A stretch of 25,953 bases of DNA from positions 1 to 25,953 of IMG/VR virus record IMGVR_UViG_3300005764_001402; one strand, given 5' to 3'. This document shows, in pieces, positions 1-25,792 of this stretch. Numbering within the stretch: position 1 is the first letter of the stretch; each line of letters opens with the position of its first letter. This stretch comes from a virus. Its lineage: Duplodnaviria; Caudoviricetes. Under the pieces are notes generated by a model, which saw only the letters and a program-made list of their open reading frames with translations, was not told the origin of the DNA and ran no database searches. A program made the translations under genes and the position numbers.

Positions 1-1
1 C

Positions 2-382
2 CTTGAGCGCAATTGCCGGGTCGAGGGCCAAATCGGCGTTGGCAACGAGCGCGCCACCGAGCCCGAGTTTCCCGTCTTGCACGGCGTAATTGTCGCGCCA
101 CGTTAGTTGCACGTACCCGCGGCCGTAATACGTTTGCCCGGTTTGCGGGTCAGGCACGCCGTACGGCTTTCCTTTTCCTTGTCCGTACTCGGCGATTGGC
201 GCCATCGTTTGCGCCGTCTCGTGAAAGGTCGTCGCCAAGATGTAGGCCAAATGTCGGTCGTCGCATCCGACCGACTCGGCAAAATCGAGTATGGCATTCA
301 TGCCGTCGACTTGCCCCTGCGTCATGGAGCCGGAGAAGAGCGAGCCGCGAACACTATCGAAAAAATACTTGCGTTGAATCAT
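2..382 (-). CDS. Endolysin, glycoside hydrolase family 19 (3' end runs off the window)
   Basis: Not in the ORF track; translated by hand as MIQRKYFFDSVRGSLFSG...LAYILATTFHETAQTMAPIAEYG...YYGRGYVQLTWRDNY...LALDPAIALK. HET and GRGxxQLTxxxNY are GH19 motifs. ATG at 382 overlaps the upstream TGA (ATGA); an alternative in-frame ATG is at 391. Confidence 0.92.
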   Translation of the reverse strand, partial: MIQRKYFFDSVRGSLFSGSMTQGQVDGMNAILDFAESVGCDDRHLAYILATTFHETAQTMAPIAEYGQGKGKPYGVPDPQTGQTYYGRGYVQLTWRDNYAVQDGKLGLGGALVANADLALDPAIALK

Positions 383-519
383 TGCGGCCATTCCCCATCC
401 TTCGGCTTGTCAATCGGCGGCAACCTCCGGCGCGCGTGCCACCATGCATGGAGCAAGACGCCGCCGCCGACAACGACGCCGAGCGCAAGCGCAACCTCAA
501 GCCACGTTCCGACCGTCAT
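379..519 (-). CDS. Small single-TM membrane protein in the lysis cassette (46 aa)
   Basis: MTVGTWLEVALALGVVVGGGVLLHAWWHARRR: hydrophobic helix then a basic stretch; ATGA overlaps at both ends. Confidence 0.65.
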   Translation of the reverse strand: MTVGTWLEVALALGVVVGGGVLLHAWWHARRRLPPIDKPKDGEWPQ

Positions 520-2130: not shown

Positions 2131-2209
2131 GGCGGGGCGGTGCGTCTATCACACCGGCGGCGCGAGTCTACCGAGCGTGCTATGAGCGCTCGGGAGGGGG
2201 GCCGCACCA

Positions 2210-2812: not shown

Positions 2813-2818
2813 GCCGCG

Positions 2819-3918: not shown

Positions 3919-4590
3919 ATGGCGGAGGAGCGCACGGGCGAGGGGACGCGCAAAAACCTCGGCCCGCCGGTGGCGGTGGTCGTCGAGCGGCTCGCCAAGA
4001 TGCAACGGGCGTGTCGAGCGTCGCGCGAGGAGAAGAAAGCGGCGGCGCGGCGGTGGCTCGAATCGGTCCCGGGGATGAACCTTGCCGAGCTCCGGACGTC
4101 GACGTCGACGAAGTATTGGACGGTGGCGATGCTGCACTTGGGCGGCTACGACCTCCGGACGATCGCGGGCACAATCGGTTGGTCGAATGTGGCGCGGGCG
4201 GCGCGGGCGTTAAAGCATCCGGCGGTGCGTCGCATAATCGAGCTCATTCGGGCGGAGCAAGTCGACCGGATATTGCGTGGAGAGTACGGCGTGCAGGCGG
4301 CGGCGAAGGCGGCGGCGCCGGCGGTCATGGAGCACGTTGCGGAGCTCGCCGGCGGGGTCAAAGACAAGGCCACCGGGGCGCGCATTGGGCGGGCGAAGCG
4401 GGATAGCGACGCCTTACGCGGTGCCGAGCTCCTCCTAACCGTGTCGGGCGATAAGGTCGAGCGCAAGGCGGTGTTGCACGCGCACCTCTTCGAGCAAATG
4501 AGCGACGACGAGTTGGAGCGGTTGGCGGGGGCGGGCGAATGGCCGGAGCGCTTTCGCGGGGTCGCGGGGTACTTGCCGGGGGGCGAATGA
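3919..4590 (+). CDS. Putative terminase small subunit
   Basis: In-frame ATG at 3919 preferred over 3742. HTH-like segment (GYDLRTIAGTIGWS), helical body and C-terminal MSDDELERLA resemble TerS proteins; first gene after the palindromic region. Confidence 0.5.
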   Translation: MAEERTGEGTRKNLGPPVAVVVERLAKMQRACRASREEKKAAARRWLESVPGMNLAELRTSTSTKYWTVAMLHLGGYDLRTIAGTIGWSNVARAARALKHPAVRRIIELIRAEQVDRILRGEYGVQAAAKAAAPAVMEHVAELAGGVKDKATGARIGRAKRDSDALRGAELLLTVSGDKVERKAVLHAHLFEQMSDDELERLAGAGEWPERFRGVAGYLPGGE

Positions 4591-5381: not shown

Positions 5382-5620
5382 TCGCGTGGTTGCGTCGGGA
5401 GCTCGGCGATTGCCGCCCGACGCCACGCCTTAACCACGGCGCGCCAAAAACGCCCGTGGTCAACGCCCGCCTCGGCGGCGCTCCGGGCGGCGTGCGAGTC
5501 CAAGCACGCCCGCTCGTGCGAGGCGCGGGCGAGGGCGTTTCGGGAAACGGTCTTGCCGCATGCGCGGCACGTAATGAAAGGGCCGTTAGGTTGCCAGCGG
5601 AGGAGCATGGCGGGCGTCAT
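5378..5620 (-). CDS. Small putative Zn-finger protein
   Basis: CRACGK...HERAC; ATG at 5620 overlaps the upstream TGA. Confidence 0.6.
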   Translation of the reverse strand: MTPAMLLRWQPNGPFITCRACGKTVSRNALARASHERACLDSHAARSAAEAGVDHGRFWRAVVKAWRRAAIAELPTQPRD

Positions 5621-5784
5621 GCCGCGACCTCGGCGCAATGGTAGCAACGCCGGCGTGCCACCGGGCGGTTGTCGAAATCGGCGACGACGTGCCCGCATTC
5701 GAGCGTGTCGAGGAGCCGGTTAGGCGTACGCTCCCGAGCGACGACGCGCCGGAGCGGCGCCCGTTTGCGGCGCTCGGCGGTCAT
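5617..5784 (-). CDS. Small putative Zn-ribbon protein
   Basis: LECGH...RRCYHC; ATGA overlaps. Confidence 0.65.
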   Translation of the reverse strand: MTAERRKRAPLRRVVARERTPNRLLDTLECGHVVADFDNRPVARRRCYHCAEVAA

Positions 5785-5945
5785 GGCTCGACCTTCCGCG
5801 CCCCGGGCCGCGGGCGCTTGGCGGCGCGGCGTAGTTGGCGGAGCTTCGCCGGCGTCAACGCCTTGCCGCCCTTGCGGCCGCCCTTGGCGCCGACGCATGC
5901 GGGGCAGATAAGGACGCGCTCATGAACGGGGCAATGCGGCGTCAT
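5781..5945 (-). CDS. Small basic protein with Zn-binding and KGG-like motifs
   Basis: CPVH...CPAC then GAKGGRKGGKALTPAK; ATGA overlaps. Confidence 0.65.
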   Translation of the reverse strand: MTPHCPVHERVLICPACVGAKGGRKGGKALTPAKLRQLRRAAKRPRPGARKVEP

Positions 5946-6160
5946 ACCTCGACCTCGGCCCGAAGTAGCGCCTGGTAGCGCGCTTCCTGCCATGCAATCG
6001 CCTCGGCCGCATTCTCAGCGGTCAAGACAGGAAAGCGAGCTGTACGCTCCATGATCGCTTGTGCCATAACCTCCCGGCGCGTAATACGCTCGCGCACCGC
6101 GGCGGGAGTATCGGGGCGCTGCTTGGCGCGCTGCAACGCGCGCATGCTGTGATTGCTCAT
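5942..6160 (-). CDS. Hypothetical protein (72 aa), first gene of the reverse cassette
   Basis: Directly downstream of a sigma70-like promoter; ATGA-coupled to the next gene. Confidence 0.7.
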   Translation of the reverse strand: MSNHSMRALQRAKQRPDTPAAVRERITRREVMAQAIMERTARFPVLTAENAAEAIAWQEARYQALLRAEVEV

Positions 6161-6166
6161 AGCCCC

Positions 6167-6195
6167 AACCTACCGTAACCTCTTTCGTTAGTCAA
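6167..6195 (-). promoter_or_regulatory. Sigma70-like promoter, probably leaderless
   Basis: TTGACT-17 nt-TAGGTT, 6 nt before the ATG at 6160; no clear SD. Confidence 0.7.
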
Positions 6196-6248
6196 ATGGT
6201 CGAGGGTCGGGATAGGCAAGGCGACCTTTCGAGCGTACAAGGCACCCC

Positions 6249-6467
6249 ATGGAGCAAAACGAGCCCTTGGCTTTTGCCGGTGCCAACGACGGCCCTATGC
6301 CACCGGCCCCAGTGGTTACCTTAGAGCGCCGCCCCGAGCTCCATGCGGTCGCGCGGAAGGTCATTGCCATACTCGACCCGCTCGACCCCGCCGCCCGGCT
6401 CCGGGTCATCCGGGCCGCGGCGCTCCTCCTAGAGCTCGACGTCGCAACCCTCGGGCTCTACCCCTAG
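6249..6467 (+). CDS. Hypothetical protein (72 aa)
   Basis: ELHAVARKVIAILDPLDPAARLRVIRAA helical motif; 9 nt upstream of the fibre gene. Confidence 0.6.
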   Translation: MEQNEPLAFAGANDGPMPPAPVVTLERRPELHAVARKVIAILDPLDPAARLRVIRAAALLLELDVATLGLYP

Positions 6468-6476
6468 GGCGCCGCC

Positions 6477-8246
6477 GTGGATTCCGTTACCGGCCCCCGA
6501 GGGCCGCAATGGCGGCCGCCACGGCGCACCGGCGGCGCCTCGGGCGGTACGCCCGGCCCCCAAGGGCCGCCCGGCCCGACCGGACCCGCAGGGCCAGGGG
6601 TGCCCGCCGGCGGCACGTCGGGGCAAGTCTTAGGCAAGACGTCGGCGACCGACTACGCGACGGCATGGATAAACCAAACCGGCGGCGGCGGGGCCAGCGT
6701 GACCGTCGGCCCGACGCCGCCGCCCGCGCCCGCCGTCGGCGCATTGTGGTGGCGCAACGACCCCGACGGCCGCCTCTTCGTTTTCTACGACGACGGCAAT
6801 TCGACCCAGTTCGTACCCGCGACGCCGACGCTTAAGGGCGACCAAGGGCCGGCGGGTCAATCGTCGAGTTACATTGAATATCGTTTCTCGACAGCCACGG
6901 TGGCGCCGCCCGCCTCGGGCAACGTCCAATTGAATAACGCGACCGCAAGCGCCGCAACGCTTCTGTGGGCGTCCAATACAACGTCATTGAACAATGACGC
7001 GACCGTGGGCTTAGGCGCTATCACGGTCGGGAGCAAGGTCACGGTTCAGGTTCAGACTGACTCGACGAGCCTCTATCAATATCAGGTAACCGCTACCCCG
7101 ACGAATCACGGCACGTATACCGACATACCTGTTAGCTGGGTCAAGAGCGGTACGGGGCCGGCCATTGCCAATAATGCGTCTATCTTCCTCGCCGTCTCTA
7201 TCGCCGGGCAAACCGGGCCGCAGGGGCCGCAAGGGCCGGCGGGGCCAACGGGCGCGACCGGAGCGACCGGGCCGCAAGGGCCGACCGGCGCCACCGGCGC
7301 GCAAGGGCCAGCGGGAGCAACGGGCGCGACCGGCCCCGCCGGTGCTGACTCGACGGTGCCCGGCCCGACGGGGCCGCAAGGTGCCACCGGTGCCACCGGG
7401 CCGACCGGCCCCGGCGTGGCCGCCGGCGGCACCACGGGGCAACAGTTACAGAAGTCGAGCGCGGCCGACTACGCGACGGCATGGGTCACGCCGCCGACTA
7501 TCCCGACGACGCTACCGCCCTCGGGGCCGGCGGGCGGCGATCTAACGGGCACGTACCCTAACCCGACCGTGGCGGCGGGCGCCGTCGGTAACGCCGAAAT
7601 TTCCGACGTCGCATGGTCGAAGGTAACCGGCGCCCCGTCGAGCTTCCCGCCCTCGGGCGCGGCGTCGGGCGACCTCACGGGTACCTACCCGGCGCCGACA
7701 ATCGGCGCGCTCAAGGTGACTACGGGCGCCGTCGCGGCGCTCGCCATTACCGACGCGAAGATAAATGACGTCGCGTGGGGCAAGGTGACGGGTGCGCCCG
7801 CGAGCTTTCCGCCGAGCGGGACGGCCGGCGGCGATTTGAGCGGGACGTACCCTAACCCGACAATCGGCGCGCTCAAGGTAACGACCGGCGCGCTTGCCGC
7901 GGCCGCCGTGACCGACGCGAAGGTTAACGACGTCGGTTGGTCAAAGGTCACGGGCGCCCCGTCGAGCTTTCCACCGTCGGGCGCCGCCGGCGGCGACCTC
8001 GCCGGCTCGACGTACCCTAACCCGACGATAGCGAACGGCGCCGTGACCGATGCCAAGATTACGAGCGTGTCATGGTCGAAGGTAACCGGCGCGCCGACCG
8101 CCATGCTCGGGCTCGCGTCGATTGGTTTGACAGCGCCGGCGTCGCCACAAGTCGGGCAACTGTGGTGGCGGAGCGATACCGGGAAAATGTATATCTATTA
8201 TAACGACGGCACCTCGACCCAATGGGTACCCGTCAACCTCGGGTGA
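6477..8246 (+). CDS. Collagen-like tail/head fibre protein with internal repeats
   Basis: G-X-Y runs, four PPSG..GDL.GTYP.P...W.KVTGAP repeats, duplicated G.LWW...G...YxDGxSTQ(F/W)VP domain. Confidence 0.85.
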
Positions 8247-8250
8247 CAAT

Positions 8251-9354
8251 ATGGCGGCCCTCGATTTTCCTAATTCGCCAACGAACGGGCAACAGTACGC
8301 CGCGCCCAATGGCGCCACGTATCAATGGGATGGCGCCGCATGGGTAACGACCGGCGGGCAACCGGCGACGCCGACGGGGCCGGCGGGCGGGGATTTAAGC
8401 GGTACGTACCCAAACCCGAGCGTAATTGCGGCCGTCGCGTCGAAATGGACAACAAGCGGCGCGACGATCACGCCGACCGATGCGACAAAGGTTGTTACCC
8501 TGAATAGCCCCTCCTCCGATCACCTCGCTTTTGGGCCACGCCCGGCAAAGGGTCGGCTCTATGCCGACGGTGGCTCGGATAATCTCATGCTAACACTTAA
8601 CCGCGCCAACACCGGCAAGGATACACTAGCCGAGTCTGCATGGCGTTTGAAGCTAAACGGCACGACTGCCGGCGATACGGCACAGCTTGCGTACACGCCG
8701 GCGGCAAGCACGACGGAAACAGCACTGTTAACGCTCGACAGCGGGGGCACCTTGTCAGTCGCAGGGCAATTCAATCTGCCGAATGCGGGTAACCTACAAA
8801 CCTGGCTGAATAGCGGAAGCGCCGTAACAGACATCTACGCTAACAATGGGCAGACCGTCGGAGCGTCAAGGCCACAATGGTTCATGCGGCTCGATACCGG
8901 GGGCGATTTAGCTTACTTCACGCGGCGAGCGCCGAATGCGGGCGCGTACGTGAATACGCTTTTGTCCGACGGCTCCGGCAATCTTACCATTAGCGGCGCG
9001 ACCGCAACGAAGGCGAGCGGCACCACATGGGCGAATCCATCCGACCCGCGGTTGAAAGAAGACGTGGCGCCGTACTCGCGGGGCACGGCCGAGCTCGTGC
9101 AGCTTGACCCCATCATGTATCGCTACAACGGTCGGGCCGGCACGTCGCCCGACATTCATGGAATCGGGCTCGACGCCGCCGCCGTCAAACCGATCATGCC
9201 CGAATGTGTTAGGACCGTATCGGTACAACTCGATCCCGACGACGCCGAGCCAACGGACATTTTGACCCTCGACGCGAGTCCGATCATTTTTACGCTTATC
9301 AATGCCGTCAAGGAGCTCGCGGCACGGGTCGCGGCGCTCGAAGCGCATGCCTGA
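8251..9354 (+). CDS. Tail fibre with C-terminal intramolecular chaperone (peptidase S74-like)
   Basis: N-terminal LDFPNSPTNGQ; SDPRLKEDV autocleavage motif; C-terminal coiled coil LINAVKELAARVAALE. Confidence 0.88.
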   Translation: MAALDFPNSPTNGQQYAAPNGATYQWDGAAWVTTGGQPATPTGPAGGDLSGTYPNPSVIAAVASKWTTSGATITPTDATKVVTLNSPSSDHLAFGPRPAKGRLYADGGSDNLMLTLNRANTGKDTLAESAWRLKLNGTTAGDTAQLAYTPAASTTETALLTLDSGGTLSVAGQFNLPNAGNLQTWLNSGSAVTDIYANNGQTVGASRPQWFMRLDTGGDLAYFTRRAPNAGAYVNTLLSDGSGNLTISGATATKASGTTWANPSDPRLKEDVAPYSRGTAELVQLDPIMYRYNGRAGTSPDIHGIGLDAAAVKPIMPECVRTVSVQLDPDDAEPTDILTLDASPIIFTLINAVKELAARVAALEAHA

Positions 9355-10045
9355 GACGCCGCCCGCCGCCGGGCGCGTGCTCGGCCCCGATCATCCATTA
9401 GCCATTCGCGCCGCGGCGCGGGTCGCCCTCGAACAACGCAAAGCCGCGGCGGCGTACGGCACGCACGGCGACCCGTGGGCGTTCGTGCGCGACTGCGTAT
9501 GGACGCGCGACGAAGCGACCGGACAAGTACGGCGCTACCCGGCGCACGAGTACGCCGAGCTCTTGACCCGGCGGTGGCAATCGCTCCCGATACTCGTCGT
9601 CGCCAAGAGCCGGCGCATGGTGTGCACCTGGCTGTTTGTCGCGCTCAACTATTGGCTCGCCCGCTACACGCCACTAACGAAATGCGCGTTCATGGCACGC
9701 AAGCTCGGGCGAACGGAAACCGAGGGCTCGTGCGAGCTCGTACGGCGGGCGCATTTTATTCACCGCCATACGCCGGCGTCGCTTGAGCCGGTCGAGGTCG
9801 ATTACTCTATCGGCCTTTTACGCTTTCCCAACGGGTCGGAAATCGTCGCCCTCGGCGAAGGCGAGGAGCAAGCCCGGCAACATACCTTTACCTCGGTGCT
9901 CGCCGACGAGGTTTCGTTTTGGGAACATGCGTACGAGACTTGGGTTGCGCTCCGGCCGACCATCGAAGGCGGCGGCCGCATAACCGCCGTCTCCTCCGCC
10001 GGCCCGGGATTCTTCCGCGACCTGTGCCATGACCAACTAGGCTAA
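9347..10045 (+). CDS. terL: Terminase large subunit, ATPase domain only (232 aa)
   Basis: Walker A-like AKSRRMVCTW, LRFPNGSEI, Walker B VLADEVSF, coupling motif VSSA; stop follows at FFRDLCHDQLG. ATG at 9347 overlaps the fibre stop. Confidence 0.85.
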   Translation: MPETPPAAGRVLGPDHPLAIRAAARVALEQRKAAAAYGTHGDPWAFVRDCVWTRDEATGQVRRYPAHEYAELLTRRWQSLPILVVAKSRRMVCTWLFVALNYWLARYTPLTKCAFMARKLGRTETEGSCELVRRAHFIHRHTPASLEPVEVDYSIGLLRFPNGSEIVALGEGEEQARQHTFTSVLADEVSFWEHAYETWVALRPTIEGGGRITAVSSAGPGFFRDLCHDQLG

Positions 10046-10347
10046 TGGAGCATCACGCCTCATGCATGCGTTTCCAAGCATGGGATATGGGCGAGCAAGT
10101 ACCGTGCACCTGCCCGGCTACTTGGCCCCGGCGTACCGTGGCGCGTAACCCGGGCGAATGGTACGAGGAGCGCCGGCAAGAGGCGGAGCGCCTCGAGGCG
10201 GAGCTCGCCGGCGCCCGCAAGGTGCGCGACGCAATTAACGCCGTCGAGGGCGGGCGTTGGGCGGCGGGTCATATGGTCGACGCGGCAAACGAAGCGGTGC
10301 ATCGGATCGAGCGCGCCCTAGAACAAGCACGCTACGTCGGCGACTAG
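10045..10347 (+). CDS. Hypothetical protein (100 aa)
   Basis: TAATG overlap with the terminase stop; His/Cys N-terminus then coiled coil. Confidence 0.65.
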   Translation: MEHHASCMRFQAWDMGEQVPCTCPATWPRRTVARNPGEWYEERRQEAERLEAELAGARKVRDAINAVEGGRWAAGHMVDAANEAVHRIERALEQARYVGD

Positions 10348-10359
10348 GAGGGGCACAGT

Positions 10360-10524
10360 ATGGCAACGAAGCACGAGCCCGAGGAAAGCGGCGCGGCGAA
10401 GGTCGACATTACGCGACCCGACGGCACGCATATTCTCGTCGAGGGTAGCGCCGCCTTTGTCAGCCGCAAGGTCGCCGAGATTTTGACGGTGCTCTACCCG
10501 CCCCCGCCCCCGCCGCCGGCGTGA
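10360..10524 (+). CDS. Hypothetical protein (54 aa, poly-Pro tail)
   Basis: Not in the track. AGGAGG SD; MATKHEPEESGAAKVDITRPDGTHILVEGS...YPPPPPPPA; GTGA overlap with the next gene. Confidence 0.7.
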   Translation: MATKHEPEESGAAKVDITRPDGTHILVEGSAAFVSRKVAEILTVLYPPPPPPPA

Positions 10525-10745
10525 CCTTCACTAGCGAGGTCACGGCGCCGGTTAGCGTCGAGGTCACGGGCTACACGCCGCCGAGCTCGGGGCGGTACCA
10601 TGACCGGCCCGAGCGGTGCACGCCCGCCGAGGGCGAGGCGGTCGAGCTCGTGGTGACCCTCGGCGGGGTCGACGTGACCGACGCGCTACCGGCCGACGTG
10701 CTCGAAGCGCTCGCAAGCGAAGCGCTCGACCTCCTCGCCGACTAG
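10521..10745 (+). CDS. Hypothetical acidic phage protein (74 aa)
   Basis: GTGA overlap; YTP...G....PERCTPAE pattern typical of small phage proteins. Confidence 0.65.
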   Translation: MTFTSEVTAPVSVEVTGYTPPSSGRYHDRPERCTPAEGEAVELVVTLGGVDVTDALPADVLEALASEALDLLAD

Positions 10746-10924
10746 CGGGCGCGCGAGCGGCGCCGGCGGGCTTTCTTCGCCCGCGCCCACCGCACCCGTA
10801 CGGCGTGGCGGGCTTGCCGGCTACGCTCCGCGGGGTCGAGCGCCTCGGCCCGAGCTCGGCCGCCCTTGCTTGCGCCGAGGCGCCCTAGAGCGGCCGCGGC
10901 GGCGCTAATCTCCTCGGGGGTCAT
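10742..10924 (-). CDS. Small basic KGG-like putative nucleic-acid-binding protein (60 aa)
   Basis: AAAALGRLGASKGGRARAEALDPAERSRQARHAVRVRW; AAGGGG upstream of the ATG at 10924. Confidence 0.75.
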   Translation of the reverse strand: MTPEEISAAAAALGRLGASKGGRARAEALDPAERSRQARHAVRVRWARAKKARRRRSRAR

Positions 10925-10958
10925 GGCGACCCCTTGTACGAGCGCGGGCGGGTATTGC

Positions 10959-11609
10959 CTAGGCTCGCGCCTTGCGCCACCGGGCGAGGGCGACGACCCC
11001 GAGCCACGCGGCGAGGTCTTGCGGGTCGTCGTACGGTACGAGCTCGTAGCGCCCCGTACGTTGTAGGTGCACGCCGACCCGGGCCGGCGTGCCCCATTCG
11101 ACGGGTACGAGGCGGCCGCCGCCCGGCGGGGCCGTATACAAGCCCTCGGTCGCATACCCGGCGGTTTGGAGCGCGTAGGAGCCCGCCATGCGGGCCGTCG
11201 CCTTGCGCTCGGCGACGGTCACGTACCCGCCGAGCTCGCCGACGCAATCGGCCGTACCAGCATACTCGTAGGTCGGGTGATACAGGATAACCTGTGAGGC
11301 TATCGGGCGGTAACCGTAGTCAGCTTTGAAGGCGCGCCACGCTTGCACGTAGCCGACCGCCTCGGGGTGTACCGAGCTCCAATCGAGATCGTCGGCGTCG
11401 TCGAGGTCGCAACAGAGGTCAACGTGTATGCCGCGCCGGCGGGCGTGTAAGAGTACGTGCGGGTTAACCTTGGAATAGTCGGGCGAAATGCCCGCGGCTT
11501 CGAGGAGCTCGGTAACCGACGGCACGGGCGCGCCGTCGACCCGGTAGACGTGCGCCTCGGGGTCGAAGGTCAGAATCGAGCCGGCGGTTTCGTCGAGCGC
11601 GCCCGCCAT
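10959..11609 (-). CDS. PD-(D/E)XK exonuclease (RecB/Cas4-like phage family)
   Basis: FDPEAHVY, PSVT, RGIHV, YAGTAD...ERK, LQTAGY motifs. Confidence 0.85.
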   Translation of the reverse strand: MAGALDETAGSILTFDPEAHVYRVDGAPVPSVTELLEAAGISPDYSKVNPHVLLHARRRGIHVDLCCDLDDADDLDWSSVHPEAVGYVQAWRAFKADYGYRPIASQVILYHPTYEYAGTADCVGELGGYVTVAERKATARMAGSYALQTAGYATEGLYTAPPGGGRLVPVEWGTPARVGVHLQRTGRYELVPYDDPQDLAAWLGVVALARWRKARA

Positions 11610-14721: not shown

Positions 14722-14728
14722 GGCATGA
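14504..14728 (+). CDS. XRE-family HTH regulator
   Basis: ELRALRRHLGMTQQQLADALSVTLNTVARWEQG; ATGA-coupled to the integrase. Confidence 0.9.
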   Translation: MTNDELRALRRHLGMTQQQLADALSVTLNTVARWEQGVHSIGPLATLALSHLVQMHGRRPPHGATPTRSRRAKA

Positions 14729-15990
14729 CCGGGGCCAAACGGCGCGGGCGCTTCGTCGCCGACTACTACGTGAAAGCCGGGGGCCGGCTACAGCGCCGGC
14801 GCCTATCGTTCAAGACCGCCGCCGAACGTGACGCCGAATTGGAGCGGCAACGGGCGGTCGAGCGCCGGCAACGCGGGTTAGCTACCGACGTCGATCGGTC
14901 GGTTACGGTCGCCGCCTTCGCCGCCGAATGGCTCGCCGGGCTCGTGGGGCAAATCAAAGACCGCACCCTAGAGGCGTATACGGCGGCGGTTAAGCTCTAC
15001 CTCGTGCCCCGCCTCGGTGATCGCCCCGTGGCGGAGCTCACGCGCCGCGACTGCAAGGCGCTTTTGAAAGACTGCCGACAGCAAGGCGTCGGGTACGTCA
15101 AGGCCGACGGTACCAGGGTACAAAAGCCGCTCGCTAAGGGGTCGGTGTATGCCATTTACAGCGCCCTCCGGGCGCTCTTAAACGAGGCGGTCGAGGAGGA
15201 GCTTATTTCGGGTAACCCCGCCGCCCGGCTCGGCAAGCGCCTGCATTTGCACCCGACGACCCAACACAGAAAGGCGGCGGTTGCGGCCCGGGTACTCACA
15301 AAGGCGCGGCTCCGCGAGCTCGCCGAATGGGTACGTGTAAAGCTCCCGACGGCATACCCCTTGCTTCTGACCCTCGCCCGTACCGGGCTCCGGCTCGGCG
15401 AAGCCCTCGCGCTGCGCCTCGACGACTACGACCCCGAGGGCGCTACGCTCCTCGTGGCCCGGGCGTGGAATGACAAGCACAAGAAGCTAGAGACGCCCAA
15501 GCACGGGGCGCGGCGGGTCGACGTATCGCCCCAACTAGCCGCTATCCTCGACGCCCACATTGCGGCGCTTCGTAAGGTCGTCGGGCTCCATGGGAAGCCC
15601 AAGACCGAATGGCTGTTCCCGTCGCTCGCGTGGGGCATGCTCGACGCCCGCAACGTGCGCCGGCTCCTCCGCCAAATCGCCGCCGGCGCCGAGCTCGGCC
15701 GCGACTTGAAGCCCCATGACCTCCGCCACACGTACGGGTCAATTCTCACGAGCGAAGGCGCCCCGCCTCAGTACGTTCAAGCGCAAATGGGGCACGCCTC
15801 GATACAGCTAACGGTCGACCTATACGGCTCCGGGTTGCCACCGGCCCCCGGTACCCCGCCCGTGAGTTATCAACACTGGGTCGAAGCCCTCGACGACGGC
15901 CCCTCGACACGTCGCCATTCGCGGCGTACTGGTCACGGCATGGTCACAGCGCCGCGGGCGCGTAAGACCAACGGGGCGGTAAATGCCTGA
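14725..15990 (+). CDS. int: Tyrosine integrase
   Basis: TGLRLGEALAL, TPK, HDLRHTY, MGHAS, TVDLY catalytic motifs. Confidence 0.96.
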   Translation: MTGAKRRGRFVADYYVKAGGRLQRRRLSFKTAAERDAELERQRAVERRQRGLATDVDRSVTVAAFAAEWLAGLVGQIKDRTLEAYTAAVKLYLVPRLGDRPVAELTRRDCKALLKDCRQQGVGYVKADGTRVQKPLAKGSVYAIYSALRALLNEAVEEELISGNPAARLGKRLHLHPTTQHRKAAVAARVLTKARLRELAEWVRVKLPTAYPLLLTLARTGLRLGEALALRLDDYDPEGATLLVARAWNDKHKKLETPKHGARRVDVSPQLAAILDAHIAALRKVVGLHGKPKTEWLFPSLAWGMLDARNVRRLLRQIAAGAELGRDLKPHDLRHTYGSILTSEGAPPQYVQAQMGHASIQLTVDLYGSGLPPAPGTPPVSYQHWVEALDDGPSTRRHSRRTGHGMVTAPRARKTNGAVNA

Positions 15991-17933: not shown

Positions 17934-18136
17934 TTGTGCTCTTTGTGGGTCTTCCTATCGCCGGGCTCTTTTGCTGGCTCGTGTTTGACGTGCTCCTAGA
18001 GCCATTCCTAAGCCGGACCCGATGGCAGCCGAATCGCGGCGCTAGAACGTCGGCAAGCCCGCTTGTCGCGCCCGCTCCGCCACCGATTGCGCCGCAAGGT
18101 CCGCCGCCGCCGGCCCCGCTATCCCGCCAACCCTAG
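17930..18136 (+). CDS. Small membrane protein
   Basis: ATGA overlap; N-terminal TM helix and Pro-rich tail; overlaps the convergent gene by 95 nt. Confidence 0.55.
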   Translation: MIVLFVGLPIAGLFCWLVFDVLLEPFLSRTRWQPNRGARTSASPLVAPAPPPIAPQGPPPPAPLSRQP

Positions 18137-19376
18137 AAATCCCGGCGCCGAAACGCGCCGCGCCCGGGCTAACCAGCATGCTACGGGCGGCGAATGGGGC
18201 GCTTAGGTCGGCCGCCGTACGGATACCCGTTGCCGTCGGCACGCCAAGGGCCGGAACGCCGACGTAGCGCGCCCCGTAATGCGCCCCGGCACTCATACCC
18301 CCGCCGGCGGTCGCGCCTTCGATAAGGTCGCGGAGCTCGCCGGGGGCACCGCTCCACGCGGTTTGTAACATGCGCTCATAAGCCCCTTTTTGCGAGCCAA
18401 AGAGGGCCGTTTGCGTTTCCTCGCCGAGCGCGTCGTACGCCGCCCGCATGTAGGTTACCGGGTCGCCCGCGTTGACGGCACGTTGCCGCATGGTGGCAAC
18501 CCACGCGGCGGCAAGCGCGGGGCGCTCCTCGACGGTCGCTTGCTTCGCTAGCGCCTGAATACCCGTTTGTAGCGCCTCGGGGCTTTGCGAGGCGAGGTCG
18601 ATTGCGTGAACGCCGGTAACACGGAGCGGCGGCGGGGGGAGCGACGCCGCGGGCGCGGCAACGCTCGTGCCCTCCGCGGTAAGCGTCGGCCCGAGCTCCT
18701 CGGCCGAGGTCAAAACGCGCCCGAGTTTACCCGAAACGACCCGCGCCGCGGGGCCGAGCACGTACTTAGTAACCGGCCCCATTGCAATATCTGTTAGCCC
18801 GCTCACGGCGCCTTGCTCGGCGATATTCCGGGGCGATATCTCCTCGCCGGCTAGCTTTTCGCGGATTGCTTCGCCCCCGCCGCCCCCGCCCGCCGCAAGG
18901 GCTCCCGACGCGAGCCACATAGGAAGGCCGATTTCCGGTTGGGCGATTGCAAGCGCTAACGGCCCGACGGTCGCTAGGGCCGGCGGTATCAGGTTGAGCC
19001 ACGGCGAGCTCCCGGGGCTAGCCGTAGCCGAGGGCGTCGAGCTCGCGTCGGCGGCCGCCGTGTAAGACGCCGGCGCCGCGCCCGAGGTCGGAGCTACCGC
19101 CGACGGCAATAGCGGCGCTTCCGGTTGCGCTTGTGGCGCGGGATTGGCGACGGTCTGAACGCCCGCCATTCGCGCCGGGTCAACGAAATTTTGGAATGTG
19201 TAGCCGGCGCGTTGCTCCGCCGCTACGGCGGCGTCGTGGTCAAGTAGCGTCGGCGAAACAATTTCCCGAATCGTCGTCGAGCCATCCGGGGCGGTCGATT
19301 GCAAATATTGGCGGTAAAAATTCTGCTCTTGCGGTGGCGCGTCCGGTTGCGCTTGCGGTTGCGATTCATCGGCCAT
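18042..19376 (-). CDS. Putative internal virion / DNA-ejection protein
   Basis: Ala/Gly-rich helical protein with hydrophobic segments; last gene of the virion operon. Confidence 0.6.
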   Translation of the reverse strand: MADESQPQAQPDAPPQEQNFYRQYLQSTAPDGSTTIREIVSPTLLDHDAAVAAEQRAGYTFQNFVDPARMAGVQTVANPAPQAQPEAPLLPSAVAPTSGAAPASYTAAADASSTPSATASPGSSPWLNLIPPALATVGPLALAIAQPEIGLPMWLASGALAAGGGGGGEAIREKLAGEEISPRNIAEQGAVSGLTDIAMGPVTKYVLGPAARVVSGKLGRVLTSAEELGPTLTAEGTSVAAPAASLPPPPLRVTGVHAIDLASQSPEALQTGIQALAKQATVEERPALAAAWVATMRQRAVNAGDPVTYMRAAYDALGEETQTALFGSQKGAYERMLQTAWSGAPGELRDLIEGATAGGGMSAGAHYGARYVGVPALGVPTATGIRTAADLSAPFAARSMLVSPGAARFGAGISRVGGIAGPAAADLAAQSVAERARQAGLPTF

Positions 19377-19379
19377 GCG

Positions 19380-21560
19380 TTAGCGCGGTTGCGACGGTTG
19401 CACGGTACGGCGCACGTCGACCGGATAGAGCGTTGTTGTTGTCGGCCGCGGGGTCGTCGTCGTGGTTGTCGTTTCGGTCGGTATGACTGCGCCCGTTCGC
19501 TCATCCCACGGGTACGCGCCAAAATGCACGGGCGACGGCCCCGAAAGGTATTGGTCGGTGACCTTTTGCAGTTTGGCGGGCGTAAGGTCGGCGGGGTGCA
19601 TACTCTCAAATACGCCCGGCGCCGCCATCATTTTGTCGATCATATTTACCGAGCCGCGGAGCCGGCTTTCATAGTCGGCCGCCGTGCGTTCAGTACCCGT
19701 CGGGAAATTCGCAACGGCGCGCTCCGGTATGCCCGCCGCTATCGCGGCGTCGCGGATTTGTGCGTTCATTTGCAGGAACGTTTGATATGCCGGGTCACTC
19801 GCACCAAAAAATTCCTTGAGCCACGGCGTTACATAACCAAGATACTGCGCGCGTTGCTCGGGCGAGTATGTATTGAGCAAATCGTTTATAACGCCACGGA
19901 CGACGGCTTTACCCGCCAAATCTTTTGATTCGGGAATTTTCCCGTACTGTAATTCGATATCCTTTTGCATGAGCTCCCGGCGTCGCTCGAAATCGAGCCC
20001 CGCGGGGGTTGTTTCCTCGTAACTAACCGTGCCGCCCTCTTGTCCTGGCAACGGGCGGGTTTCAGTGACCCGTTGCGTGCCCGCCGGCATGCCGCCCGGG
20101 TACGCGGGCGTAAGCGCTCGCTCGGCTTGCCCCGGGGTTTCTTGCTGCCACGGTACGGCGGCGGCGGGCGCGGGCGGTACGGGCGGGGGTGGCGCGGCGC
20201 GCTCCTCGGCGGGCGCCGGGGGCGCCCCACTCGCAACGCCGGAGAGCTCGGCGCCGGGTACGACTTGGTACGGTGGCGACGGCTCCGCCCGAGCCACCAT
20301 AACGGGCGCCGGCGCCGGCCTCGCTTGCCCCGGGAATTGAAAGAGCGGCGGAGCTCCGGCGGCAAGCATGGGCGGTGCAACAACCGGGGCCGCTTCCGAC
20401 CGTGGGGCGACACGGGCGGGCGGAGCCGGCGGTACCCTCTCAAACGTGCCGTCTGGTTTGAGCCGCAAGACCTCATGCGGCGGCGGCGGGGGCGGTTGTG
20501 GCGCGGGCGCCGCGGGGGCCGGCGCCGGCGGCGGAGCGCCTTGGCTCGGCGGTGCCCCGGTATCCGGTGGCGGTGGCGACGGCGGTGGCGGTGGCGGTGG
20601 AGCCGGGCGCGCGGGCGGTGGTGGTGGAGCCGGGCGCGCGGGCGGTGGCGGAGCCGTACGAGCGGGCTCCGGCGGCGCGGGCTCCGGCGTCGGGGGCGTC
20701 GGCTTCGCTGGTTGCACCGCGGGGCGTTGCTCTAGCGGCGTTACTCCCGTGGGTTGCTTTTTGATATTCAGATACGAGGGAACGCCGTTAATCGTGCGGC
20801 CGCTCGGTACGGTTTGCTCGCCGGGTTGCAAGGCGGCCGCCGCTTGCGCCGGGTCGGTGTACTCGTGCTCCGCGGGTTGCTGCGGGTCGACAACCTGAAA
20901 GCCACCGGTCGGGCTCGGTACGACAACCTTACCGGTTTTGCGCGCGTAATCTTCCGCGGCCGCTTGGCTCAAATAGTTGCCTGCGATGTAGGGCGACCCT
21001 ACGGTAATTGCTCCGCCCGGGAGTTTGTACTGTACTTGCGACCCTGCCCCCGCCTGCGCCACCATGCCGCGACCCGCGCCGATCGCTTGCGTAATCTCAT
21101 CGTTAGTGAGGGGCACGCCGATAGCGAGCTTCGATTGCGTGCGAATCGCCGGGTCATTGCTTGTAAGGCCAATCATGGTCGAGCGGTCTTGCTCGGCTTT
21201 CACCTGCGTAGCGTAATCGAGCGGTGCGACGTCGGGATATGAACGGCCGCCCGCCGGCAAGTAGCGCACGTCTTGCGGTGCCGCGACGCCGGCAACGGCC
21301 GGCGTCCCGTCCCCTGGCTGCGCCACCGCCGGGGCGCCGCTCGGCGGAGCCCCGCCCATTCCGACGAGATATGTTCCCGCCGTAAACGGCGAGTCGATAA
21401 GTGTCGCCCGGCTCGCGGGGTCGGAAAGCGCCCGAGCGCGGGCGTTCATGTAGTTAATCAACCCGCCGCCGCGGAGTGAGGCGAGCATACCGATAGTTCC
21501 GAGCGCTCGCCCGGCGATGTTTTCCACGCCCCCGAGAATCCCGCCGCCCGGAGAATCCAT
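19380..21560 (-). CDS. Putative DNA-ejection protein with long Pro-rich linker
   Basis: 726 aa; Gly-rich amphipathic N-terminus, Pro/Ala-rich centre, helical C-terminus; operon position. Confidence 0.6.
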   Translation of the reverse strand: MDSPGGGILGGVENIAGRALGTIGMLASLRGGGLINYMNARARALSDPASRATLIDSPFTAGTYLVGMGGAPPSGAPAVAQPGDGTPAVAGVAAPQDVRYLPAGGRSYPDVAPLDYATQVKAEQDRSTMIGLTSNDPAIRTQSKLAIGVPLTNDEITQAIGAGRGMVAQAGAGSQVQYKLPGGAITVGSPYIAGNYLSQAAAEDYARKTGKVVVPSPTGGFQVVDPQQPAEHEYTDPAQAAAALQPGEQTVPSGRTINGVPSYLNIKKQPTGVTPLEQRPAVQPAKPTPPTPEPAPPEPARTAPPPPARPAPPPPPARPAPPPPPPPSPPPPDTGAPPSQGAPPPAPAPAAPAPQPPPPPPHEVLRLKPDGTFERVPPAPPARVAPRSEAAPVVAPPMLAAGAPPLFQFPGQARPAPAPVMVARAEPSPPYQVVPGAELSGVASGAPPAPAEERAAPPPPVPPAPAAAVPWQQETPGQAERALTPAYPGGMPAGTQRVTETRPLPGQEGGTVSYEETTPAGLDFERRRELMQKDIELQYGKIPESKDLAGKAVVRGVINDLLNTYSPEQRAQYLGYVTPWLKEFFGASDPAYQTFLQMNAQIRDAAIAAGIPERAVANFPTGTERTAADYESRLRGSVNMIDKMMAAPGVFESMHPADLTPAKLQKVTDQYLSGPSPVHFGAYPWDERTGAVIPTETTTTTTTPRPTTTTLYPVDVRRTVQPSQPR

Positions 21561-22114
21561 TAAAGCCCCGCGAATATCTGACCAATCAATTTCATGATCG
21601 GCCCCGTGTCGGCGTGTACCACGGGCGCCGGCGGCGTGACCTTCGTTGCCGGCCCCGTCGGCGACTGTGCGAGGTTGACGATTTGCCGAGCCGCCGCCCC
21701 GGGCGAATTGCCGGCGCCGCGGATTTGGTCGAGCGCGTTAAAGAATTGCCCGAGCCCCGTTCCGATCTGCGTCGAGGCGCTCGGGTCGGCGAGCTTCTGC
21801 GCGGTGCCCTCGATACCCTGCATGAGCCCGCCGAAAAATCCGGGGCCGGTAAAGGTAGAGCTCGGCCCCGCAAGCTCGACGCCCTCGGGCACCGCTTGCC
21901 CGAGGCTTGCCAAGTAACCCGCCTCGCTCGGAGCGCCACCGCCGAGAAGCCCGCCAATCCCTTCCGCGATGTTACTTAGCCCACTTGCTGCGCCGAGGTT
22001 TCCGAGCGCGCCCTCGACGGCACCGCCCGCGCTCGCAAGCCCGCTTCCTATGGCGGAGCCGGCGGTACCCGCCGCCTCGCCAATCGCCGAAAGGGCCGGA
22101 AGTACAAAGGCCAT
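21560..22114 (-). CDS. Putative ejection/pilot protein
   Basis: Gly/Ala-rich hydrophobic N-terminus; GGAG SD; TAATG coupling. Confidence 0.6.
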   Translation of the reverse strand: MAFVLPALSAIGEAAGTAGSAIGSGLASAGGAVEGALGNLGAASGLSNIAEGIGGLLGGGAPSEAGYLASLGQAVPEGVELAGPSSTFTGPGFFGGLMQGIEGTAQKLADPSASTQIGTGLGQFFNALDQIRGAGNSPGAAARQIVNLAQSPTGPATKVTPPAPVVHADTGPIMKLIGQIFAGL

Positions 22115-22129
22115 TGCCCCGCCCTCCCT

Positions 22130-23455
22130 CTAGAGAATGTTCATACCCTTACCGCTCGACGTGGTAATCGGCGCCGTCGCTTGCGTGAGAGCCAAGCCCG
22201 GTTGCACGCCACCGGTCAGGATATTGAGTAACTGCCCCGTTGCCTGCATAGGGAGCCCGTATTGCTGCATAAGCGTTTGACCTAACTGTTGCACGGCGTT
22301 CGCCTGCATACCCGCTAGCTGCGGCCCCATCATTGCCATTTGCCCGCCTTGCTGCGCGGCGCTTTGAATCCCTTGCGCGCCTTGCTGCAACCCTTGCAGA
22401 TACGGGAGCATGGATTGCCCGAGCGCCGCTTGCCCCTGTGCCGCTTGCTGCACACCTTGGGCGGCGCCCTCAAGCCCGGTAATCCCTTGCTGCGTAATGT
22501 TGCCGACATTGCCCGCGGCTTGGTTGACGCCGCTTATCGCGCCTTGCTGTAGGTTGCCGAGATTCGACGTCGCGCCGGTCAAACCCTGCAAGCTCGCTTG
22601 GCGTTGCGCCGCTTGGTCGGCGGCGAACTGATAGGCGAGGTTACGTTGCGCGTCGGTCATGGCTTGCGCGCCGGCGCCGCCCGCTTCAAGCCCTCGGGCG
22701 GCAAGCCCCGGCTGTACCTGTTGCATAACCCGACGCGCCGCCGCTTGGTAGAGGTCTTCACCTTGTATCGGCGACGCCGCTTGCTGCGCGTAGCGTTGCG
22801 CTAGGTCGACAGCGCTTTGTGCGCCCGTTTGTGCCGACCCGCCGCGGAGGAGCTCTTGCGCTCGCGTAAGCGCGTCTTGTGCACCCGTCAATGCCGGCCC
22901 CTGCGCCGCGCCTCGGGCAAGGTCGAGCGCCGATTGCGCGCCCGCCGTCCCTTGCGCCGCCGTTTGCTGCAAGCCCGGCAACATTGCCTGATATTGGCTG
23001 TAAAGATCTTGCGCGCCGGTTAACCCTTGCCGGGCGGCCCCGAGCCCCTCCCGGGTCGCTTGCATCCATTCGGGCATCATTTGCTCGGCCCCGGTAATGG
23101 ACGTTTGCAAGGCGTTGACGGCTTGCTCGCCTTGGCCCGCGACACGCCGGCCAATATCCGTTGCGCCGCCAATCACGCCGGGGGCGTATTGCTGTATCTG
23201 ACGAATCGCCGACGCGAGCGGCCCTTGTGCGCGGCCGCTCGTGATATCGGATTGCAACCGTTGCGCCCGACGCCCGACGCCTAGCCCGAGCCCCTGCAAG
23301 AGCGGTTGCACCGCTTGGCGCGACACGGCGCCCGCGGTACGCATCGGAAGCGCGCCAAAGGGCGACGTAACGGATTGGCTTTGCTGATTCTTGCCGTAAA
23401 AGCGTACGCGCTCGGGGGCGGCGTGGCGGTGGTAACGTCGGCTATCCTCGGTCAT
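22130..23455 (-). CDS. Putative ejection/pilot protein, Gln/Ala/Gly-rich coiled coil
   Basis: Long QAG-rich helices and LAARGLEAGGAG motif; follows the GNAT genes as in podovirus-type operons. Confidence 0.65.
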   Translation of the reverse strand: MTEDSRRYHRHAAPERVRFYGKNQQSQSVTSPFGALPMRTAGAVSRQAVQPLLQGLGLGVGRRAQRLQSDITSGRAQGPLASAIRQIQQYAPGVIGGATDIGRRVAGQGEQAVNALQTSITGAEQMMPEWMQATREGLGAARQGLTGAQDLYSQYQAMLPGLQQTAAQGTAGAQSALDLARGAAQGPALTGAQDALTRAQELLRGGSAQTGAQSAVDLAQRYAQQAASPIQGEDLYQAAARRVMQQVQPGLAARGLEAGGAGAQAMTDAQRNLAYQFAADQAAQRQASLQGLTGATSNLGNLQQGAISGVNQAAGNVGNITQQGITGLEGAAQGVQQAAQGQAALGQSMLPYLQGLQQGAQGIQSAAQQGGQMAMMGPQLAGMQANAVQQLGQTLMQQYGLPMQATGQLLNILTGGVQPGLALTQATAPITTSSGKGMNIL

Positions 23456-23979
23456 GCGGCCCCCTTTCTCCCGAGCGTGTCGGCGTTACGCCCCTCGACG
23501 TCGAGGGCGAGGGCGTCGACGCCACGCATGACACTAAGCGCGGTCGTCGCCCAACCGCGCGAGCTCCATTGCGTGTCGCCGGGCACGGTGCGGCCCTCGA
23601 CGACGCCGATACCGTGGCGCCGACAGTACGGGAGCAACCCGTCGCGGAATAGTGCGCGGCCGACGCCGGTTTGCCTATGCTCGGGAACAACGTAAATCCA
23701 TTCGACGAAAAACGAGCTCGCCGGCTCGCCGACCGGCCGCGACCAAACCTCGCCCGCCAAAAACCCCCTCACGTCGCGGTCGGCGGCGAGCCAAACCTTA
23801 CACGCCGGGTCTATGTCGAGGCGCCGGCGCCAATCTTCGGCGTAATGCGCGGCCGCCGTATTGGGGTCGAGCCGGGGGTAAGCGTCGGGGTAGTGGGTTT
23901 GGTGCTCGACCATGAGCGCTTGAAGCATGGTGCCGAGCGCTCGGGCGTCGTTGGCGGTCGCCGGGCGCACTAGCCTCAT
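23452..23979 (-). CDS. GNAT-family acetyltransferase
   Basis: ATG at 23979 (ATGA overlap); VRPATAND...WIYVVPEHRQTGVGRALF (motif A). Confidence 0.88.
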   Translation of the reverse strand: MRLVRPATANDARALGTMLQALMVEHQTHYPDAYPRLDPNTAAAHYAEDWRRRLDIDPACKVWLAADRDVRGFLAGEVWSRPVGEPASSFFVEWIYVVPEHRQTGVGRALFRDGLLPYCRRHGIGVVEGRTVPGDTQWSSRGWATTALSVMRGVDALALDVEGRNADTLGRKGAA

Positions 23980-24653
23980 GGCTCCGCCTTCGGGGCCGCC
24001 GGAGCTCGCCGGCGGCGTACCTTTCGACGCCGGCGGCGGCGTACGACCGGGCGCGCCGCGGCGCCGTTGCCATTCGCGGCGGCAAGCGGCGGCGTAATCT
24101 CGGGCTCGGGCACGTCGAGCGCGGGCGCCGGCTCCATGGCGGGCGCCTCGGGCACTAGGGGCCGCTCGGCGGCCGCCACCGCGATGCTCGATACGGGCAT
24201 GACGTAGTGCACGAGGTAGGGCGCCCAACCGCGCTTTAGCCATTGGTCGTCGCCCGTGAGGGCGCCAAGCTCGACGTGTGTTATCCCGGCGGCGGCGAGG
24301 TCGCCGCATGCCAATCGGACAAGGGCGCGGGCGACGCCGAGCCCTCGCGCCACCGGCGCCACATAGAGCCAATGGGCGGCGCCATAGCGGGTCGGGTACC
24401 CTAAGAGGCGCTCGGAAATCTCGCCGCCCAAGAATCCAAGCAGCGCGTGGGTACCCTCCTCGCACGCGACGTAAAGCAAAAGGCGCGGGTCGACCCCGAC
24501 GCGGCCCGCAAGGTGCACCGTGAAATCCTCGACGGTTTGCGGGTCATGGCGCGGGTATTCGACAACCCGGAATTGTTCGAGCTCGGCGACAAGATGCGCG
24601 AATGCGACATGGAGCGCCGGCAAGTCTTGGAAAATGGCGCGACGTACGATCAT
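23976..24653 (-). CDS. GNAT-family acetyltransferase with basic C-terminal tail
   Basis: VRRAIFQD...WLYVAPVARGLGVARALV; tail RRRRRRKVRRRR. Confidence 0.88.
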   Translation of the reverse strand: MIVRRAIFQDLPALHVAFAHLVAELEQFRVVEYPRHDPQTVEDFTVHLAGRVGVDPRLLLYVACEEGTHALLGFLGGEISERLLGYPTRYGAAHWLYVAPVARGLGVARALVRLACGDLAAAGITHVELGALTGDDQWLKRGWAPYLVHYVMPVSSIAVAAAERPLVPEAPAMEPAPALDVPEPEITPPLAAANGNGAAARPVVRRRRRRKVRRRRAPAAPKAEP

Positions 24654-25792
24654 GCTAGCTCAAGGATAAACATTACGCCGGTATCGACGCCGCTCGACGC
24701 CACGGCTTGCCCGCCGAGGAGTGCAGTCACCTTGAATCGGTGTTGCCCGGCGGCGACATTACCGACCGCCATCGTAGTAATTTGATAGGGAACGACGGCA
24801 ACGCCGGAGCCCGTTACCAACCCGGTATTATTCATTTCGCATGTTACCGTTCCGTTGGTCGGTACGCCCGCCGTGCCGTCAATACGCAGGCGCGACGTAA
24901 TCGAGACTGCAGCGCCCGACGACGCAATGCCGACGTGCCCGTTTATAAGCCCCCACGCAATATAACTTCCGCCCCGAGACGTCCATGTTTGCTCCATGCA
25001 TAACGCCTCGGTGCCGAGCGTGATTAGAAACCCGCTCGCCACACTTGCGCCAACAAGCGCCTGAACACTCGCCCCGACAGCAAGCATGGAGCGCAAAACG
25101 GAGAGGTCGGCAAGTGTACAGTAGACTTTGCCGTCGCTCCCCTTGATATTGAATAGACCCGCCCACGCGGTACCCGGCGCCGGCGCTCGGTCAATCTCGA
25201 ATTGGTCAGCGCCGTAATTGAGGCGGGCTAGCCACGAGGCTTTCGTATTGTCGAACGCATTCAGGGCGCTTGTATTACCCCCAAAATCCACATACGTGCC
25301 CGTCGTAACGAGCCCGCCGCGGGGGTTGATATTCAGCGTACCGCCTTGCACGACGCCGATTGCAGGGTTTGGATAGGTGCCGCTCAAATCGCCGCCCGCC
25401 GCGGAGCTCGGCGTGATCGGCCCTGAGAGCTTCGCTTGCGTAACGCTCCCGTTCGCAAGGTCGGCGGTAATTATCGACCCGTCGATTATCTTCGACGTGC
25501 CAACGCTATTATCGGCGAGCTTTGCCGAGGTAACGCATTGGTCGGCGAGGTCGACCGTTGCCACGCCGCTATCGGCGAGCTCACGCGACCCGACGGCGCC
25601 CGGGGCGAGCTTCGCACCCGTAATCGCACCGTCGGCGATATTGTCATTGGTTACGCCGGTATTCCAAGCGCTGTAAATCGTATCGAGGTCCGCATCCATT
25701 TCGGACGCGAGAATGTTTTTGTATCCGGCCGCGACCTTTCCCTGATAGGTCGTCGCGCCGCCTTGCTTCGTCGGTCGGGTTAACTGCGGCAT
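24650..25792 (-). CDS. Tail fibre/spike protein
   Basis: About 10-aa (I/V)TxAKLADxS repeats, [11 protein letters not shown], beta-rich C-terminus. Confidence 0.8.
   Translation of the reverse strand: MPQLTRPTKQGGATTYQGKVAAGYKNILASEMDADLDTIYSAWNTGVTNDNIADGAITGAKLAPGAVGSRELADSGVATVDLADQCVTSAKLADNSVGTSKIIDGSIITADLANGSVTQAKLSGPITPSSAAGGDLSGTYPNPAIGVVQGGTLNINPRGGLVTTGTYVDFGGNTSALNAFDNTKASWLARLNYGADQFEIDRAPAPGTAWAGLFNIKGSDGKVYCTLADLSVLRSMLAVGASVQALVGASVASGFLITLGTEALCMEQTWTSRGGSYIAWGLINGHVGIASSGAAVSITSRLRIDGTAGVPTNGTVTCEMNNTGLVTGSGVAVVPYQITTMAVGNVAAGQHRFKVTALLGGQAVASSGVDTGVMFILELA

Follow-up and report, generated by a model that had tools for sequence, protein, structure and literature searches.

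The terminase ATPase gene and its surroundings

The window, i.e. the whole stretch of DNA that was analysed (25,953 bases), corresponds to the whole record G000, a linear virus contig, 68% complete, of a tailed soil phage. The phage is temperate, as it carries a tyrosine integrase gene. The following genes and features were distinguished:

2..391 (-), endolysin gene (GH19), truncated by the contig end
516..2130 (-), start of the divergent late operon, by comparison with relatives; three genes, including one for a holin-like membrane protein (1103-1537)
3919..4590 (+), terS-like gene (223 aa; frame open from 3742), on the same strand as the ATPase gene
6477..9354 (+), two tail-fibre genes in the interval between the terS-like gene and the ATPase gene, variable among relatives
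9347..10045 (+), TerL-N, the ASCE core of a terminase ATPase (232 aa), stopping ahead of the lid subdomain
9605..9628 (+), deviant Walker A motif, K87-S-R89-R90-M-V-C-T94, with no glycine
9893..9910 (+), Walker B motif, D187-E188, with the catalytic glutamate E188, aligned to T4 gp17
9992..10000 (+), coupling motif, S216-S217-A218, in the T4 T285-T287 region
10043..10047 (+), stop codon TAA of the ATPase gene overlapped by the ATG of the following gene (TAATG)
10045-10347 (+), small gene after the ATPase gene, unrelated to terminase; conserved part from 10138
14725..15990 (+), tyrosine integrase gene
18042..25792 (-), distal end of the virion operon, encoding a tail fibre, two GNATs and ejection-like proteins

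The layout described in an earlier, sequence-only reading of this DNA holds: the ATPase gene follows tail-fibre genes, starts 4.76 kb downstream of the end of the terS-like gene (4590) and occupies the strand opposite to the virion genes (18042-25792). Its remoteness from terS, which the same reading had singled out, is not a conserved trait. A terS-like gene is present upstream on the ATPase strand in 36 of 53 loci, at distances ranging from 12 bp to 6.2 kb, and the remaining 17 loci contain at most 4.7 kb of upstream sequence. Its identification as TerS is tentative: it matched no family of Pfam, PHROG-terS or NCBIfam, and the Terminase_2 cluster scored 0.91 (rank 12 of 30). A scan of positions 1900-11000 for promoters and terminators remained at chance level, and no RNA holder is listed for positions 1-3000.

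Other observations on the window concern: (i) the interval between the terS-like gene and the ATPase gene, which seems to be a hot spot for the insertion of fibre and small genes (12 bp to 6.2 kb); (ii) tail-fibre genes oriented in both directions (6477-9354, + and 24650-25792, -); (iii) two tandem GNAT acetyltransferase genes (23452-24653, -), located between the tail-fibre and ejection-like genes and found also in genomes G001-G004; and (iv) a 198-aa gene heading the late operon (1534-2130, -), assigned to PHROG 18407 (function not known), which few relatives possess and which gave no match to the profile of the lid and nuclease partner described below.

The ATPase open reading frame encodes 232 aa and terminates with TAA. 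Its product (P0001) has no Pfam, PHROG or NCBIfam match at E ≤ 0.01 (PHROG terL, E 0.16). A profile built from 34 relatives matched residues 105-288 of T4 gp17 (E 1e-11), and the AlphaFold model of the window protein (pLDDT 87.9, pTM 0.85) resembles T4 gp17 (Foldseek E 5e-12; VIA-align Z 20.6). The protein is a T4-gp17-like terminase ATPase with an ASCE core of terminase topology. The Walker B and coupling motifs proposed from the sequence do align with those of T4 gp17, and the Walker A motif is present in a deviant form. Among short proteins of the family, the Walker B and coupling residues are strongly conserved (D187 in 92/97, E188 in 97/97, S216 in 90/97 and S/T217 in 97/97). The family Walker A consensus is K-S-R-R/Q-M-x-x-T/S-W, with K87 and R89 present in 97/97 short proteins and R89 aligned to T4 R162 in the profile alignment. 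The classical form (R-x-x-G-K-T/S) was not found, since neither glycine nor lysine occupies its usual position in any of the 97 short and 44 fused relatives. The glycine-less motif is shared by short and fused proteins alike, and is therefore a family trait and not a consequence of the split; with the usual glycine missing, ATP handling may differ from that of the terminases studied so far.

The view that the ORF ends as a genuine gene, and not through damage, is confirmed. The stop codon occupies an identical position in 54 of 54 sequences (the window and 53 IMG/VR loci, 76-92% identical), all three stop codons being used (TAG in 23, TAA in 21 and TGA in 10). Contigs of two runs, X4 (9536-10290) and X5 (9853-10601), span the stop, including positions 10030-10050, with 0 differences; runs X1 and X2, which may be the source sample, were left out of this evidence. 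In the protein database, 64 relatives are of similar length and only two are longer, at 42 and 35% identity. Beyond the stop, the DNA shows no conservation: the longest word shared has a median of 6 nt there, compared with 11 nt in the last 60 coding nucleotides (52 loci).

A separate gene for the lid and the nuclease

The window itself holds no RNase H-like TerL nuclease ORF, as had been noticed from the sequence, and profile searches of it came out empty: with the partner profile, the lowest E value in the six frames was 0.34, and a further search gave no match at E ≤ 10. Five long relatives (completeness of at least 90% in four, terminal repeats in two) were searched with a longer homolog, which gave two matches in each: the ATPase gene and a gene of 289-293 aa on the opposite strand. 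With a full-length TerL profile (44 fused relatives), exactly two matches and no third were obtained in 5/5 of these genomes. Of the two options left by the sequence-only reading, a split terminase with its nuclease near the portal and outside the window is supported, each of the five long relatives having a separate gene for the C-terminal half and no second terL; a motor with another nuclease or none is not supported.

This partner gene (approximately 290 aa) was located in 55 loci. Of the 52 loci examined, 50 have an ATG or GTG of the partner's own at a conserved start (MPFL/VPFL), which often comes immediately after a stop codon. Downstream of the partner, at 45-910 nt, 53 of the 55 loci have a portal-like gene, and the remaining two loci stop before reaching that point; identification of this gene as the portal is weak, the PHROG matches being to head-tail adaptor (E 5e-13) and portal (E 0.011). 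The partner chain matched no terminase family in profile scans of 87 members, and a sequence search of the PDB gave a chance match only.

In relatives, the late operon runs on through the endolysin, lid and nuclease, portal-like, scaffold-like and major capsid genes. The complete genomes G003 and G004 display the same plan: on the ATPase strand, the terS-like gene, variable small genes and fibres, and the ATPase gene; on the other strand, lysis genes, the partner, portal-like, scaffold-like, N4-gp56-type capsid and tail genes, two GNATs and ejection-like genes. The genes flanking the partner in these two genomes are variable cargo: a Mom-like modification gene (L064:9073-9525) directly precedes it in G003, and a PAPS-reductase-like gene (L066:15056-15769) directly follows it in G004. 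Another record, G002 (54 kb; L072 and L074), contains two differing tail/ejection/replication blocks, one per end, and may be chimeric or represent a tandem of two related phages; no host flanks were present in the 37 kb gene-called at both ends. An ATPase 84% identical to that of the window was found on a 9-kb contig (L133) of a Gaiellales MAG, which may be a hint of the host or a mis-binned virus.

Both genes are present on 13 contigs, two of which are complete. They occupy opposite strands in 13/13, with starts 4.6-10.8 kb apart, and point away from each other (directly in 12 cases and across the record ends in one). Protein distances of the ATPase and of the partner correlate (Mantel r 0.955, p 1e-4; 12 complete pairs), and the median dN/dS values are 0.106 and 0.110, respectively (66 comparisons each, 12 pairs). 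The two genes are under purifying selection and co-diverge.

The full-length profile (A3; 44 fused relatives) is covered by the window ATPase over positions 17-219 and by the partner over 226-494, with no overlap. The junction corresponds in fused relatives to an unconserved loop with a median of 18 residues (9-53 in 42 of 44 rows and 2 in the other two). By sequence profile, the ATPase ends at approximately T4 residue 303; structural alignment pairs its last residue with T4 315, P74-26 220 and Sf6 173, an end point uncertain by about ten residues because the last ten residues of the model are of low confidence (pLDDT 54-62). The published lid ranges begin at T4 314, P74-26 221 and Sf6 173 (PMC6379665, Table 1). 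In the model of the partner (pLDDT 88.1), residues 79-275 match D6E 233-417 (Z 20.4), where 230-241 is the D6E linker (PMC5727402). Ahead of the linker, residues 1-78 are modelled as a hairpin, a strand (37-41) and helices (47-71); the lid and, by alignment, the last strand of the ATPase sheet travel with the nuclease.

Residue E70 of the partner aligns to the T4 lid glutamate E351, the proposed partner of the Walker A arginine (PMC6379665), and is found in 87/87 partners, down to 38% identity. The residues invariant in all 87 are D46, E70, D109, D164, D167, H256, D260 and D263, and others of the lid region are nearly so (H42 and Y43 in 85/87, W54 and R69 in 86/87). Alignments and models place the cut before the lid and not at the ATPase-nuclease hinge, the partner carrying the last strand, the lid and the invariant glutamate, followed by an intact RNase H nuclease. 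The statement that the ORF stops just after the ATPase domain was thus correct as to the stop and incorrect as to the domain, as the ORF ends before the lid. The lid and the nuclease are not in the same polypeptide as the ATPase; an RNase H-fold nuclease with acidic catalytic residues is encoded in the relatives and, according to contig matching, probably also in the phage of the window.

The position of this gene in the window's phage was approached through spacing and contig records. The partner starts 739-2035 nt after the endolysin start in 17/17 loci measured (741 nt in G001, whose ATPase is 92% identical to that of the window). Given that the left end of the window cuts the endolysin gene, the conserved spacing in relatives predicts a start of the partner approximately 350 nt or more to the left of position 1. 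A 434-nt contig of run X2 matches positions 1-240 exactly and extends 194 nt beyond the left end, and a record of equal length and depth aligns collinearly with G001, stopping 157 nt short of the partner start. Contigs of runs X4 (1038 nt) and X1 (1299 nt), about 82% like G001, reach into and through most of the partner gene and share four indels with an X2 record. Synteny, together with contig records matched by length, depth, strand and shared indels, suggests that the window's phage likely has the partner gene just past the left end.

Short, fused and adjacent forms in the wider family

When 1.84 billion representatives were searched with a profile, 2,979 matches were obtained. Among the best 150 of these (three added rows are excluded), 92 end at or near the same place as the window protein, 49 are full-length and 9 are neither. 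Pfam and NCBIfam give nothing useful for the ATPase or the partner, and PHROGs nothing for the partner; with 92 short forms in the best 150, terL surveys will miss such genes or call them fragments. A cultured split member was looked for and not found, the closest cultured matches being 20-26% identical. Pelagibacter phage Hodr and Pseudomonas phage Rollin were considered as cultured split members and rejected, since they match the C-terminal half but encode it within single genes (501 and 477 aa, respectively).

Genomic context was available for 35 further loci (27 new ones from 80 kept of 208 viral matches, and 8 from genomes): 30 stop at the same place, 4 are fused and one is cut by the contig end. 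Of the 30 short loci, 6 have the partner next to the ATPase gene and 15 have it 0.7-7.3 kb off on the same strand, while in 9 it falls outside the locus. In the adjacent splits L134, L135, L139, L140 and L163, the stop codon of the ATPase gene and the start codon of the partner share bases (ATGA or TGATG), an arrangement that looks more like coupled genes than a frameshift site. The gene following the short ATPase of L140 (L140:514-1542) matches only the strand and lid part of the partner profile (8-73), after which 266 residues are unmatched, possibly as a result of a swapped nuclease domain. Four ATPases (P0139, P0154, P0186 and P0189) contain large insertions, the interpretation of which as inteins is a guess; three of them still use the family's short stop.

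In a quick tree of 134 ATPase domains (87 short and 47 fused; rows with insertions or partial cover were excluded), 32 changes of state were counted, of which at least 11 are forced by starred branches. Six of the short proteins are closer to a fused sister (48-64% identity) than to other short proteins (30-42%). In a careful tree of 24 hand-picked rows, 9 changes are forced, and a single short clade was rejected by the AU test, the p-value of which is biased because the rows were chosen after the 134-domain tree had been seen. Short and fused forms are interspersed, and the join has therefore likely been broken or remade repeatedly at one loop. The counts of state changes are undirected, and module exchange could add to the pattern.

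A proposed two-chain motor, its alternatives and known systems

The window gene is one half of a conserved two-gene terminase. The two genes, each with its own start and stop, tile one full-length TerL without a gap, and complete genomes contain no other terL. Very probably, the gene encodes the ATP-binding core of a TerL made as two proteins, a core that would act only when docked to the lid and nuclease chain encoded on the opposite strand. We infer that the two chains bind each other. As the ATPase half is devoid of the lid and the nuclease half has it, the motor is likely assembled from two different proteins.

In the proposed motor, chain A (232 aa; Walker A/B and coupling motifs) and chain B (approximately 290 aa) would form a 1:1 protomer by strand and lid complementation, chain B being composed of a hairpin, strand 37-41, lid helices 47-71 with E70, a linker and the nuclease. 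Such protomers would surround the portal in the usual ring. R89, the Walker A arginine of chain A, may toggle to the lid glutamate E70 of chain B, i.e. across chains, and DNA cleavage would be performed by chain B via D109, D164/D167 and D260/D263. Chain A would be transcribed with the terS-like gene and chain B with the head genes; as a product of the head operon, chain B could gate motor assembly.

We have moderate confidence in a broader proposal, in which a large uncultured family of tailed phages would run its packaging motor from obligate heterodimers, with the force-transmitting lid and the toggle glutamate on the nuclease chain and the two chains in separate operons, the join having been broken or remade many times at one loop, and the nuclease chain serving as a trans-activator able to time motor assembly. 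As the halves occur fused, adjacent, kilobases apart or on opposite strands, in the heterodimer reading the covalent link between core and lid would be dispensable. Models of terminase motors rest on the movement of the ASCE core, lid and nuclease in one chain. A natural cut between core and lid allows each side to be made, mutated and titrated separately, and offers a direct test of the need for a covalent link in the action of the lid and of the Walker A arginine toggle, and of whether motor and nuclease can differ in stoichiometry.

The driver of the split is a separate matter, and one proposal compatible with the two-chain motor is lower detection by bacterial TerL sensors such as Avs, in place of regulation or of neutral drift in a loop that tolerates breaks. 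KpAvs2 binds a phage large terminase, as predicted via the ATPase domain (PMC11564622), and the repeated state changes at one site, together with the odd Walker A motif, would fit an arms race. We nevertheless regard this driver as unlikely, since the junction loop is unconserved (9-53 residues in 42 of 44 fused relatives) and neutral fission suffices.

One improbable reading is a phi29-like motor ring built of chain A alone, with the lid replaced by an N-terminal helix or by portal contacts and chain B acting as a loosely attached cutter for initiation and termination only. The ATPase model folds well alone (the pTM given above), and separate operons permit different amounts and timing of the two chains. 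However, chain B keeps lid residues that have no RNase H role (H42, Y43, D46, W54, R69 and E70; 85-87 of 87), and the lid is reported to be central to coupling ATP hydrolysis and movement (PMC6379665, PMC5727402).

Rejoining of the halves, whether through trans-splicing of RNA or protein or through an inversion of DNA bringing them in frame, appears very improbable. The divergent layout is such that a single inversion would put the halves in order, inteins and introns are common in terL, and three short relatives have large insertions in the ATPase. On the other hand, orientation is the same in 13/13 contigs, and the words shared at the junctions of these contigs (7-12 nt; control median 8-10 nt, 95th percentile 10-12 nt) do not exceed background in 11 of 13, the other two sharing 12-nt words only. 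No Rfam family, which means described families only, was detected in the window and six related loci (136 kb), neither end has spare residues for a split intein, and the lack of conservation after the stop (6 nt compared with 11 nt) points the same way. An invertible segment, an intron and a split intein were each rejected on these grounds (no recombination word, no Rfam match, no extra residues); frameshifting, readthrough and bypassing are unable to join opposite strands.

A reading of the ORF as a truncated remnant or the product of misassembly, with a second complete terL performing packaging, has a negligible chance of being correct even for a window only 68% complete, as the stop is shared by 54/54 sequences and spanned with 0 differences in runs X4 and X5, dN/dS is approximately 0.11, and the full-length TerL profile has no third match in complete relatives; neither an assembly error nor full-length closest homologs with a second complete terL, the two outcomes that the sequence-only reading had named as refuting, were encountered.

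Terminases encoded by two genes are already known, and what would surprise a specialist is the cut ahead of the lid, the separate operons and the repeated change of state. A literature search, largely confined to papers outside subscription, found no report of a terminase split over opposite strands or ahead of the lid, and no passage on split or separate-gene terminases was found in two reviews (PMC13595956, PMC7617512). Single-chain TerL proteins (T4 gp17, PDB 3CPE/2O0J; D6E, PDB 5OE8; P74-26; Sf6) have in common with the present system the ASCE fold, Walker B glutamate, coupling motif, Walker A arginine, lid glutamate and RNase H fold (Z 20.4 to D6E); they differ in that here two opposite-strand genes are involved, the lid is on the nuclease chain, and the Walker A motif is lysine-first without glycine. 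In Arthrobacter phages of cluster AY (BillyTP, BlueShadow), the large terminase is encoded by two consecutive ORFs (PMC11920828, PMC12820723), and separate ATPase and nuclease genes are thus a shared trait. Genes 2 and 3 of BillyTP (PP978841; 359 and 198 aa, 17-nt overlap) lie on one strand between terS and the portal gene, and their sizes and sequences suggest a cut after the lid. Cluster AY has a GKG-type Walker A, adjacent genes and a probable post-lid cut, in contrast to the 232 + ~290 aa, opposite strands and pre-lid cut described here.

The terL frame of Streptomyces phage Hau3 is also in pieces, being interrupted and a candidate for translational bypassing (PMC10732093). Its pieces, which lie on a single mRNA with 7-10 nt between them, are proposed to yield one protein, an outcome that is impossible for genes on opposite strands. 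Lambda gpA shares the lysine at the first P-loop position (KSA-R79-VGYS; PMC6379665, Table 1) but retains a glycine. The family described here lacks this glycine in 141/141 aligned proteins. The terminase ATPase-nuclease coding sequence of herpesviruses (UL15/UL89) is likewise separated by opposite-strand genes; there, two exons on one strand are spliced into one protein, whereas here two proteins are encoded.
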